Assembly: GCA_951406725.2 (NCBI GenBank)
Contig: OX597822.1
Location: 60,016,001-60,080,000, forward strand
DNA: 64,000 nucleotides
Direction: 5' to 3'
Source of the DNA: Octopus vulgaris
Taxonomy: Eukaryota
In this document: one piece after another, positions 53,943-57,938 of the stretch
Position numbering within the stretch: the stretch's first letter is position 1
How the letters are laid out: every line of letters begins with the position of its first letter
Program-made: the position numbers and the translations under genes
The notes under the pieces: model-generated
The model's database searches: none
The model's input: only the letters and a program-made list of their open reading frames with translations
What the model was told of the DNA's origin: nothing

Positions 53943-54934
53943 TTCTTTCAGCATGTTTGTCAGCACCTTGTATGAACGGTGGTCAATGTTCGAATGCAGG
54001 TACATCATTTGTGTGCCATTGTCTTCCTAACATTTACGGTCCTCGTTGTCAAATTGAAGATAAATGTCGCTCAGTGACTTGCCTAAATGGTGGCCGATGT
54101 ACTACAACTAACTTTGTTGCGAAATGTAATTGCCCATCTGGATTTACTGGTCCACGATGTGAAAATCCCATTAATTCCTGTCAATCTTCACCGTGTCAAA
54201 ATGGTGGAACATGCTATCCAAATGGAGTTCAATTCACTTGTCGTTGCCCTGTTGGATTCAGAGGACTACGATGTGAACAACCATTTTGCTCAGCAAATAT
54301 CTGTCAAAATGGTGGAACATGTCAGCTTGTAAACAATCAAGTTTCTTGCATATGTCTCAATGGATTTCAAGGTAATAGATGCCAGGTGCCGATTCAGTGT
54401 TATCCACCATGTCAAAATGGAGGAATTTGTAACACTAACACAAGAATGTGCAACTGCCCTCATGGATTCGTTGGCCCAGATTGTTCAAGAAGAGATGATT
54501 GCGCGTTAAATCCAAATATCTGTCAAAATGGTGGAACATGTCAGCTTGTAAACAATCAAGTTTCTTGCATATGTCTCAATGGATTTCAAGGTGATAGATG
54601 CCAGGTGCCGATTCAGTGTTATCCACCATGTCAAAATGGAGGAATTTGTAACACTAACACAAGAATGTGCAACTGCCCTCATGGATTCGTTGGTCCAGAT
54701 TGTTCAAGAAGAGATGATTGCGCGTTAACTCCAAATATCTGTCAAAATCCCATTAATTCCTGTCAATCTTCACCGTGTCAAAATGGTGGAACATGCTATC
54801 CAAATGGAGTTCAATTCACTTGTCGTTGCCCTGTTGGATTCACAGGACTACGATGTGAACAACCATTTTGCGCACCAAATATCTGTCAAAATGGTGGAAC
54901 ATGTCAGCTTGTAAACAATCAACTTTATTTGTAG
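53943..54934 (+). CDS. Copy B exon 8 variant 1, expanded EGF array (8 complete + 2 partial repeats), truncated at a duplication junction
   Basis: ORF 53807..54934. Internal 219-bp tandem unit (starts 54294, 54513, 54732) and a repeat at 582-bp offset (54162/54744). Runs into intron-6 sequence at ~54921 and stops. Confidence 0.8.
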
Positions 54935-55786
54935 GAATTTGTGACACTTTTTAATCCTAATAATCGGAAAATTATCAACATGTATTTTATTTTAGCTATA
55001 ACAATGCTGTTAATTGAATCTATTTCATAGAATAAGCTCTTTTCAACGTGGACATCTTTAACATATGTACTCTCAGATTTGCACCTCTAAATACATTAGA
55101 TATTTATACAGCATTCCGTCTGGTTCTACATGTATTCCACCTGCTTGTGTGTTATGTACCTCCTCAAAAATATTCCAAGTAGTGGTTATTTGGTCATTTG
55201 TTTAACTGGACAATAATAATTCGTTGTGAGTGAAAAATAAAGCTCTTGGTAGTTGAGGTGTTAACCCATTAGTGCCCAAACTTCTTTATTTGATTTATAC
55301 CAAACATCTCTTTTATACAACATTATCTATACAAAATATATTTTTTTAAATTATTACAATATTTAAAAAACACTCCAGTCTTCATGGCTAAAATACAGGT
55401 GTTGCAGAAATATAATAGATTATCTTTCTGGTCCTAAAAGAAGTACTATGGGTGCTAATGGTGGTTAAAAGTTGATTTCTAGTACTAGTTTCATTAATAC
55501 CATGTAGATATGAGTGGATAATTAACACGTTAAAATAAATGGAAGTAAACATTTAAAAGTAGATAGGCATCTAACTGTCGAACAATTTTTTGTTAGCTAC
55601 ATGTTTTTAAGCAGGTGGAATTTAACTGCAAATATAGTTGAGAAGGTGTTAATAATAGTCCCTAAAAAATCTAGCAATGAAAACATGCATTATATTGCAA
55701 TACCTCTGGTGTTATTTTAAACTGGAATGAGTTTTCAGAACAAAGTTTAATAAAGCGAAAAATGGGTTAATATTGATTTATCTTAG

Positions 55787-55906
55787 GGATCGGCGAATGC
55801 GAGCTGACGACGGCTCCTTGTTTAAATGGAGGTACGTGCGTTGAAGAAATTAATGGCTATTTCTGCAGATGTGCATATGGTTATACGGGACCCAAATGCG
55901 AGACTG
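55787..55906 (+). CDS. Copy B exon 7 (second duplicate), EGF
   Basis: [44 protein letters not shown] boundaries. Confidence 0.8.
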
Positions 55907-57488
55907 GTAAGAATCATGAATTTCTATTTGAATTTACAACACTATGATAAACTAATGCCAAAATTTCAGCAAATGTAAGTATTGCAAACAATTTAGACAT
56001 CAAGTTCCATGGTAAACTGAGAAAGGCCAACACACTCTAAAGATATATCTAATCAAAAATATGAAAAAGGAGAAAACAAATACTGCTTTCAATTGATTTG
56101 AATTCTATCGTCAATATAAATAATTTCAGCAGCTTTATAGCGACTTATTAATTTACTAAATGAAATTGTTTTTCAATTTCAAATTAGAAATATCTTTCTA
56201 CTAAAATCATTTTCCTTCTTCATATATAAAGCCACATAAAAAATGTGTGACCTATCTCTTTATTTTGTTGGAAGACTAAATCGGTAAGCGATAGGATATT
56301 CTCAGACTAGAAGATACAGGAGGTTGCTAATACAGTAATCTCTCGCCATATCGCGGATCACCCATTACAGTTTATTTTTCGAGCTTACGTCGATTCCTCC
56401 GTAGTGTTGTTTTGCATTTACAACATAAATGCATTTATAAAATAAATATATAAAAATTATAAAAATAATAATAAAAATATACAGTGCTGCTCCTTCTTCG
56501 TAGATTTTCACCTATCGATGGCGGTTTTGGAATGTCAAATACGCGATAGTCGAGGTATTACTGTACATCACATTAACATTCGTGAGGTAAAAGGTCTTTA
56601 TAATTACTGTTTGTAATATGATGATCGGGTTTAAGAGGTAGAAGCGGGATTTGGAGTGGAACACGTAAGCATGACACGTGTGCAACTCGGAGATGTGAGG
56701 AAAAAGGTTCATCTAGCAAGTTAAGAATTTCACTATTAAAGCTAAAAACGAACTAGCCAGTGGTTAGATTTGAAGATTTCTAATAATCTGGAATACATCT
56801 ATAAGCATACAAAGAAGTCAGAGATTAATGGTGTCCAACATAGATATGAGAGACACATTCCATACTGAGTGAAATCTGGATCTCACATAACCTAATTTCT
56901 ACCAGTAAATAAAGCCTATATTCGCAATTGTATTGAATACCACATCGTATATTAATTTCGGCATTGGGATTACATAGTACAAAAAGATATTTAGAAAAGT
57001 AAAACACAAAAATCATTCAAACGAAGTGAAATATATTATCATTGTCTGGCAGTCGTTTTCTTAATACATCTTTATTTCTATTATCAGATGTTTTTTTCTT
57101 AAATACATTTCTATTTGAGGATCATTTTTGACGTTTTGTAGATGACCTGTAGGCTGAATTAGTAATTGTAAATCAATCGTGCTGATCGGTAGTGATTTTT
57201 ACTCCATAACGATAATACTGTATTAAACAGGTCTGCCATAGTTATAGTTACTTATAAGACGTCTTAAGTGTGCTAGCATTGTAACCGAGTTGTAATTTAG
57301 AGCAGAATGAAAAACACACACAACATTATCTTATTTACAAAACTGAATAATTTTGTGTTTGTATTTAAGTAAGGCATTTATGGATTTAGTGAATGTTGTT
57401 TTATTAAATAGTAAATCAAGTAGATTTATTCTGTTAATTTGTTTTTGTTTTGAATTTAATCTGTTAATTTATTTCTTTTTGAATCTAG

Positions 57489-57938
57489 TTATTTCAGCAT
57501 GTTTGTCAGCACCTTGTATGAACGGTGGTCGATGTTCGAATGCAGGTACCTCATTTGAGTGCCATTGTCTTCCTAACTTTTACGGTCCTCGTTGTCAATT
57601 TGAAGATAAATGTCAATCAGTGACTTGCCTCAACGGTGGCACATGTGTTATAACTAACTTTGTTGCGAAATGTATTTGTCCACAAGGCTGGACTGGACAG
57701 AGATGTGAGATTCCAATCAATCAATGCACTCCAAATCCTTGTCAAAACAACGGCTACTGTCACAATCTTGGATTAGGTGGCTTCGTTTGCGATTGTGTTA
57801 ATGGATGGTCTGGCAAGTTTTGTAATAACAGAACTTATTGTCCGTCTCGCCCTTGTCTTAACGGAGGAACCTGCATCCAAAATGCCAACCTGATACGTTG
57901 CCGATGCCCATTTGGCTTTAAAGGAAAATATTGTGAAG
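57489..57938 (+). CDS. Copy B exon 8 variant 2, four EGF repeats
   Basis: Lies within ORF 57353..57976; 450 nt versus 675 nt in copy A; same acceptor and donor context. Confidence 0.88.

Follow-up and report, generated by a model that had tools for sequence, protein, structure and literature searches.

How can neighbouring genes encode proteins of the same plan with EGF arrays of very different length, when each array lies in a single exon? This question is raised by a 64,000-nucleotide stretch of Octopus vulgaris DNA, here called the window (contig OX597822.1, C9:60016001-60080000; positions without a prefix count from its first letter). It holds gene A (G6) and gene B (G7) of seven tandem C2-DSL-EGFn-CBM14 paralogues, G1 to G7, found in the contiguous 464 kb around it (0 N). 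The genes encode, in this order, a signal peptide, a C2-like region, a DSL domain, EGF repeats and a CBM14 domain followed by the stop, and their exon 8 is an intron-less array of 2 to about 23 EGFs. Our analysis suggests that exon 8 has likely been resized through mis-pairing of similar repeats in recombination, or through switches of template among them, and that one copy in gene B, B1, is a broken duplicate that is probably skipped; we hold this reading as a whole with good confidence.

The first-pass annotation, made from the window alone, had described three versions of exon 8. Its counts stand: six EGFs in gene A, eight complete and two partial EGFs in B1 (987 nt from 53943) and four in B2, all opening with the same two repeats, a and b; so does the 219-bp tandem unit that it saw in B1 (98% matches; Table 1). 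However, B1 and B2 are not two paralogues, but parts of a tandem duplication within one gene, which then ends in a single CBM14 exon. Judging from the sequences, the 11-repeat exon of G4 is likely the template, because O. bimaculoides P0182 also has 11 repeats and because the repeats group by type. In a per-repeat tree, which included 11 of the 13 repeats of G1 and is weakly resolved with many open forks, the 11 array repeats of P0182 fall by type with those of G4. The exon of G3 contains seven near-identical 219-bp units, the third and fourth of which are each one base short in the same A-run; these shifts look like consensus errors.

Table 1. Features of the exon-8 arrays, their junctions and the surrounding exons
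Feature	Position	Strand	Content	Basis or remark
Exon 8, G1			13 EGFs, 1449 nt	
Exon 8, G2			9 EGFs, 1002 nt	
Exon 8, G3	C9:59918093-59920631		~23 EGFs, 2539 nt	
Exon 8, G4			11 EGFs, 1227 nt	repeat order a-k
Exon 8, G5			2 EGFs, 219 nt	
Exon 8, gene A (G6)	18959..19633	+	a, b, c/g/h chimera, i, j, k; 6 EGFs, 675 nt, phase 1-1	
Repeat-g piece in repeat 3 of gene A	19210..19263	+	c-to-g at Cys2, g-to-h just after Cys5	
Last exon, gene A	22311..22486	+	CBM14 (peritrophin-A) chitin-binding domain and stop	sequence; PF01607 in relatives
Exon 2, gene B	40190..40383	+	194 nt (190 in six other genes); frameshift near 40358-40371, in-frame TGA	
Exon 6, gene B	51241..51353	+	one EGF; dead donor, GA at 51352-51353 (GT in G3)	
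Duplication copy 1	51380..54929	+	3541 bp: intron 6, exon 7a, intron 7, B1	self-comparison
Exon 7a	52248..52367	+	one EGF, 120 nt, phase 1-1	
B1, broken exon 8	53943..54934	+	a b c d e f e (f partial) c (d partial)	
219-bp tandem unit	54294..54748	+	two EGFs; 2.1 copies in B1, 7 in G3	
Second c-d block of B1	54744..54929	+	G4-type, entered out of register	
Duplication copy 2	54921..57938	+	intron 6, exon 7b, intron 7, B2	
Exon 7b	55787..55906	+	one EGF, 120 nt, phase 1-1	also in O. sinensis P0005; spliced ends in X1
B2, exon 8 of gene B (G7)	57489..57938	+	a, b/i fusion, j, k; 4 EGFs, 450 nt	intact donor
Sole CBM14 exon, gene B	60162..60337	+		genome search
Junctions, G2			c-f, g-c, d-f, g-h	
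Junctions, G6			c-g, g-h	
Junction, G5			b-k	
Junction, B2			b-i	
Junction of 219-bp expansion			f-d	

Breakpoints were located by jump alignment to G4, with the exon of G1 entered as 1314 nt (true length 1449) and G3 placed through a separate comparison. All eight distinct junctions in exons that bear a splice donor keep the frame and the six cysteines, five lying at Cys1-Cys2, in the CQNGG codons, and three at Cys4-5; in-register junctions are thus 8/8 in donor-bearing exons against 0/2 among those specific to B1. At six junction repeat pairs the near-perfect shared run has a mean of 15.5 nt, compared with 7.0 nt for 330 combinations of repeat pair and cysteine (p = 0.0006 by permutation, in a post hoc test whose combinations are not independent), and 5/6 pairs are joined at the top or tied-top homology position. 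The second repeat of B2 is, as had been proposed, a fusion of b and i, placed at Cys4-5 by the jump alignment. The third repeat of gene A does start as c and continue with a different half, g, but it is a triple rather than a double chimera. CQNGGTC fits the O-fucosylation motif C2-X4-(S/T)-C3, which occurs 0 to 10 times per exon and is a plausible reason why the CQNGG codons stay alike.

The duplication within gene B repeats intron 6, exon 7, intron 7 and exon 8: 51380-54175 recurs at 54921-57721 with 96.6% identity and an offset of 3541. Copy 1 is 98.2% identical to G3 over 51380-54748, and the first 806 nt of B1 differ from G3 at 7 positions (99.1% identity); copy 2 has a G3-type 5' end and is of G2/G5/G6 type from mid intron 7 onward. 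The acceptor of B1 is present, its end is without a splice donor and reads into a TAG at 54932-54934, and every donor-like site within it would split an EGF. A 582-bp-offset repeat in B1 had been described as broken from CQN to CQN. The repeat is there (54158-54347 against 54740-54929, 96.8%), but the breakpoints are not borne out: at the 5' junction of the second block, 5 shared bases link Cys2 of f (CQN) to Cys6 of b (CEN); at its 3' end the block leaves mid-d for the copy of intron 6, with 2 bases in common next to a shared 9-mer, at no cysteine. Positions 54744-54922 are identical to c-d of G4, about 120 kb upstream, and show 3 differences from B1's own first copy. With out-of-register junctions, no donor and a stop, B1 therefore cannot lengthen a chitin-anchored spacer; it had been taken for a working length variant, and is instead a broken exon in the same gene as B2. 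That it works as an exon at all seems to us very unlikely.

Together, these data suggest a model in which the shared CQNGG codons of repeats c, d, e, f and g let repeats mis-pair in register, while near-identical 219-bp units would expand by unequal crossover or slippage, and deletions over 5-20 nt of near-identity would arise by microhomology-mediated repair. Selection would purge out-of-register products from working genes, which may be why the only two such junctions were seen in a dead exon. B1 itself likely arose by serial template switching, from a G3-type array into c-d of G4 type and then into intron 6, and gene B would splice exon 5 to exon 7a and/or 7b, then to B2 and CBM14, all in phase 1. 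What survives of the original idea, a length-variable family created by exchange within an intron-less array, is that the exon was resized repeatedly and in register, to between 2 and about 23 EGFs in seven genes, with matching lengths in O. sinensis. Classical unequal crossover is not supported for every junction, since the deletions have only 5-20 nt of near-identity and the two junctions of B1 are out of register. The proposal that these changes tune the length of a spacer is likewise not supported. At about 2.5-3 nm per EGF, the arrays would span roughly 6 to 65 nm.

The O. sinensis counterparts are close: P0022 has the 11-repeat form (402/408 residues identical), P0002 the 2-repeat form (71/72) and P0005 the 4-repeat form (143/148 aligned residues identical to B2). 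The central dimer is present in 7 copies in G3, 5 in O. sinensis P0004 and 4 in P0015; it is also multiplied in G1, and O. bimaculoides P0008 has a separate dimer duplication. Read contigs were compared over window 53940-56000 for 4 of 24 runs (X1, X3, X8 and X10). A loose contig end in X8 leaves B1 sequence at 54210 and continues as an A-type piece, matching the c/g junction of gene A, and one in X10 matches the c/f junction of G2. Because the O. sinensis repeat forms and these loose ends match, the length variation of exon 8 is not an assembly artefact. Contig depth was tried as a measure of copy number and dropped, as paralogue bubbles collapse.

None of the listed runs is recorded as RNA, and X1 was treated as such solely from its exon-exon joins; its contigs are spliced and strongly exon-skewed, and its depth is no measure of expression. 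Two X1 contigs join exon 7b to a B2/G2-type start, and one joins the end of exon 7 to the start of exon 7b, with a 14-mer found once in the 464 kb; P0003 and P0011 also hold the exon 7 to 7b join. The X1 joins into exon 7b and on to a B2-type start fit skipping of B1. As a separate observation, an X1 contig at 54194 joins a d/f-type start to a c-type end at the CQNGG codons; this junction, which rests on only 8 loose letters, is absent from the 464-kb region. In five O. sinensis records (P0003, P0006, P0011, P0024 and P0025) the head comes from one paralogue and both array and tail from another, either by cross-gene read-through splicing or as mis-joined models.

Several points weigh against our interpretation. 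The template is present-day G4, which makes the breakpoints approximate; by homology (5 nt) the g-to-h junction comes only third, and the d-to-f junction of G2 could be a diverged d/f repeat instead. The ~23-repeat exon of G3, with its two A-run shifts, is not an open frame in this assembly. Some O. sinensis isoform records are model artefacts in which heads and tails of different genes are mixed, the exon upstream of 7b in P0003 is of G5/G6 type and not 7a, and the exon 7-7b join, seen in one contig, could be a back-splice or a cross-gene splice. Finally, a 74-mer unique to B1 is present without differences in X3, but this run may stem from the very animal that was assembled, and the B1-type 74-mer could instead represent an allele of G3.

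The alternative that survives best, to which we give a little less than an even chance, is that of an unstable, redundant array under birth-and-death evolution, with drift in the number of repeats and, in this haplotype, decay of gene B. It agrees with our explanation on mechanism and differs on function only. Three lesions in gene B speak for it: the exon-2 frameshift, the dead exon-6 donor and the broken B1. So does the tolerated range of 2 to about 23 repeats, and the expansion looks recent, since O. bimaculoides has two full-length representatives (P0182 and P0008) plus one fragment among the matches. The frameshift is either a null allele or a consensus error, and so may be an assembly error; O. 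sinensis P0005, an intact gene-B product, is intact at exon 2, and the public O. vulgaris model P0020 steps around the frameshift. The loss of the exon-6 donor is apparently old, as judged from O. sinensis records that skip exon 6 (P0005 and P0021) or have the same ending as the gene B read-through (P0012 and P0019). Read-through may yield a short, tail-less C2-DSL-EGF isoform, the 260-aa records of O. sinensis ending in that intron. Decay is further opposed by the 8/8 junctions in donor-bearing exons that keep six cysteines and by the splicing of exon 7b to a B2-type start in X1. Downstream of exon 2, window 40735-40785 holds a degenerate second copy of the signal-peptide exon of gene B.

A second alternative would make length and modules the target of diversifying selection, with the proteins acting as molecular rulers or variant binders on chitin, and with conversion homogenizing introns while being disfavoured across the EGF exons. 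We regard it as possible but rather doubtful. The genes are mosaics, in which the nearest paralogue switches along the gene; the head of gene B is G3-like and its tail G2/G5/G6-like. Flanking introns are 98-99.8% identical among the genes with 9, 2, 6 and 4 repeats, and when close paralogues are compared, EGF exons vary at non-synonymous sites far more than the flanking introns do: 26/86 against 19/700 for exon 6 (Fisher p 1e-15), 26/159 against 15/1000 for repeats j-k (p 6e-14) and 10/91 against 17/900 for exon 7 of G3, G7a and G7b (p 6e-5). The excess over introns appeared in 4/6 tests; it was absent in the other two, exon 8 a-b (p = 0.075, with an intron count probably inflated by an alignment break in intron 8 of G5) and exon 7 of G2, G5 and G6 (p = 1). 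The 11-, 2- and 4-repeat lengths kept in O. sinensis, and the spliced, exon-skewed contigs of X1, also favour selection. Against it, synonymous sites were raised as well in two tests (4/22 and 4/42), non-synonymous and synonymous changes differed significantly in 0/6, and the paralogue sets were chosen after the segment-by-segment identities had been seen. The per-exon ratios of 0.27 to 1.52 rest on few changes, exon 6 of G1 being out of frame in that table, and close sister species share deletions even without selection. The pattern fits conversion blocked across exons by selection, or a chance placement of tracts; it does not demonstrate positive selection. Apart from these tests, intron 7 has a stretch of about 600 bp that is 98-99% alike among A, B1 and B2 (17810-17870; copies at 52800-52860 and 56340-56400), likely a conversion tract; in the 5' part of the intron, A and B are only 85-95% alike.

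It is unlikely, in our judgement, that an assembly error produced B1 and the 3.5-kb duplication by placing a G3 allele or a chimeric read path in gene B. The near-identity of B1 to G3 and the identity of its second block to G4 would be expected from such an error, the A-run shifts of G3 are signs of consensus errors in the region, and no retrieved protein holds a B1 junction peptide. However, the contig has no gap, overlap assemblers alone would hardly make microhomologies of 5 and 2 bases beside a shared 9-mer, and copy 1 has variants of its own, its exon 7a being closer to 7b (96.7%) than to G3 (92.5%). The 74-mer in X3 and the exon 7 to 7b join in X1 likewise argue against an artefact, which in any case cannot account for A, B2, G2, G4 and G5. 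At 54032 the three other runs have the non-B1 letter only. None of the 32 read-contig pieces listed from the four runs bridges the B1 junctions, which is not counted as absence because these are a small share of the pieces and contigs drop variants; at 54921 a contig continues into the ordinary intron-6 flank in 4/4 runs. On balance we consider B1 probably real in this animal.

More speculative, and improbable in our estimate, is a ruler set that would hold a Notch-ligand-derived head 2-23 EGFs away from chitin, with the conserved O-fucosylation motif also serving as a mis-pairing hot spot from which new, in-register chimeric EGFs arise, selection separating the paralogue-specific EGF modules and conversion erasing differences in the introns. 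The idea that B1 is used as a terminal exon, so that a C2-DSL-EGF protein without a tail is secreted and finishes at the stop within the copy of intron 6, has an open frame to 54934, an AATAAA at 55236 and the O. sinensis records P0012 and P0019, which end reading into the same intron, on its side, but is highly improbable given its two incomplete EGFs with unpaired cysteines, the frameshifted exon 2 of this haplotype and an X1 depth at 54032 that consists entirely of the non-B1 letter.

Our preferred reading, resizing of exon 8 by exchange between similar repeats, concerns a family confined to one locus: exon 2 and the CBM14 exon, used as queries against the genome, each gave 7 close matches, all in one 260-kb cluster, with no comparable match outside it. 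PF01414 (DSL) scores above cut-off, PF01607 does so in the relatives P0002 and P0005, and PF07657 (C2/MNNL) reaches 22.3 bits in P0128 (cut-off 22.5). O. vulgaris protein P0010 corresponds to exon 8 of gene A over 224/224 residues. In a phmmer search with P0002, generic EGF proteins dominate, and among the 7 matches examined those from abalone, snail and mussel have DSL and EGF domains and no CBM14 (E 0.001). We predict that the genes yield secreted rods that bind chitin and differ in length. G3 and G4 have a micro-exon of about 7 codons after exon 8 and before the CBM14 exon (C9:59921427 and 59951586); searching by motif gave no such exon in the remaining five genes, and the 2-repeat records of O. 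sinensis carry it. A role in the venom gland, suggested by the exon-over-intron pattern, was dropped when the literature gave nothing relevant.

The locus offers a clean, dated natural series in which one exon runs from 2 to about 23 folded domains, with chimeric EGFs and breakpoints readable to a few bases, and in which EGF number changes with no shuffling of the usual kind, one domain per exon. Should selection act on length or module sequence, the series would be a direct test of spacer length in a chitin-bound extracellular protein; if it does not, the cluster would be an unstable tandem array of the ordinary kind, and a caution that Notch, Delta and Jagged labels assigned automatically here are wrong. 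PRDM9, a single gene whose alleles vary and whose read-out is known, changes its number of zinc fingers by exchange within an intron-less exon; the octopus variation, in contrast, is seen between paralogues and species.

Like Delta, Serrate and Jagged (DLL1, PDB 4xbm), the octopus proteins have a signal peptide, a C2-like region, a DSL domain and EGF repeats, and the alignment of P0005 to DLL1 begins at the C2 region (E 1e-52). Unlike canonical Notch ligands, they end in CBM14 and a stop in place of the transmembrane helix and intracellular tail, and EGF number varies tenfold between neighbours. A mollusc Delta2 is described as lacking the transmembrane part (PMC8166818); as far as the available text of that paper goes, it describes no chitin-binding tail or such an array. 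The passages on hand of PMC10970066 name no chitin-tailed array either. Our literature searches found no paper on this gene family, though the supplements of PMC8166818 may include these genes among 138 DSL genes.

Repeat-number change with conversion in clustered genes is already known, going by the sections at hand of work on spidroins, Sp185/333 and SmPoMuc. As those sections describe it, the spidroin MaSp cluster (PMC9779670) likewise consists of clustered secreted structural genes with higher-order repeats, intergenic conversion and rapid change of gene structure. There, however, low-complexity motifs make up the repeats, and the introns that set them off differ from gene to gene, whereas the octopus genes have folded six-cysteine domains in one exon and homogenized flanking introns. 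The sea urchin Sp185/333 genes (PMC3091723) are, from the abstract, similar in being tandem, alike and provided with shared flanks, in their segmental duplication and proposed conversion, and in their assembly pitfalls; they are immune genes of two exons, the abstract names no EGF, DSL or chitin-binding domain, and it is the octopus junctions that lie within domains and in cysteine register. Schistosoma SmPoMuc (PMC2576457), in the portions available, is a small multigene family with frequent recombination and repeat variation, in which splice variants alter glycosylation; the octopus counterpart may be the 0 to 10 O-fucose motifs per exon. Unlike the octopus variation, SmPoMuc polymorphism has been demonstrated among individuals and linked to compatibility with the host.

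The stretch that separates genes A and B contains two broken, related (72-80%) copies of a LINE-like (long interspersed nuclear element) retrotransposon, at 27952-31358 and 33298-35600 on the - strand, both with frames that look by eye like reverse transcriptase and endonuclease. On the + strand, window 36429-37490 has frames resembling, again by eye, what we take to be a broken mariner-type transposase.

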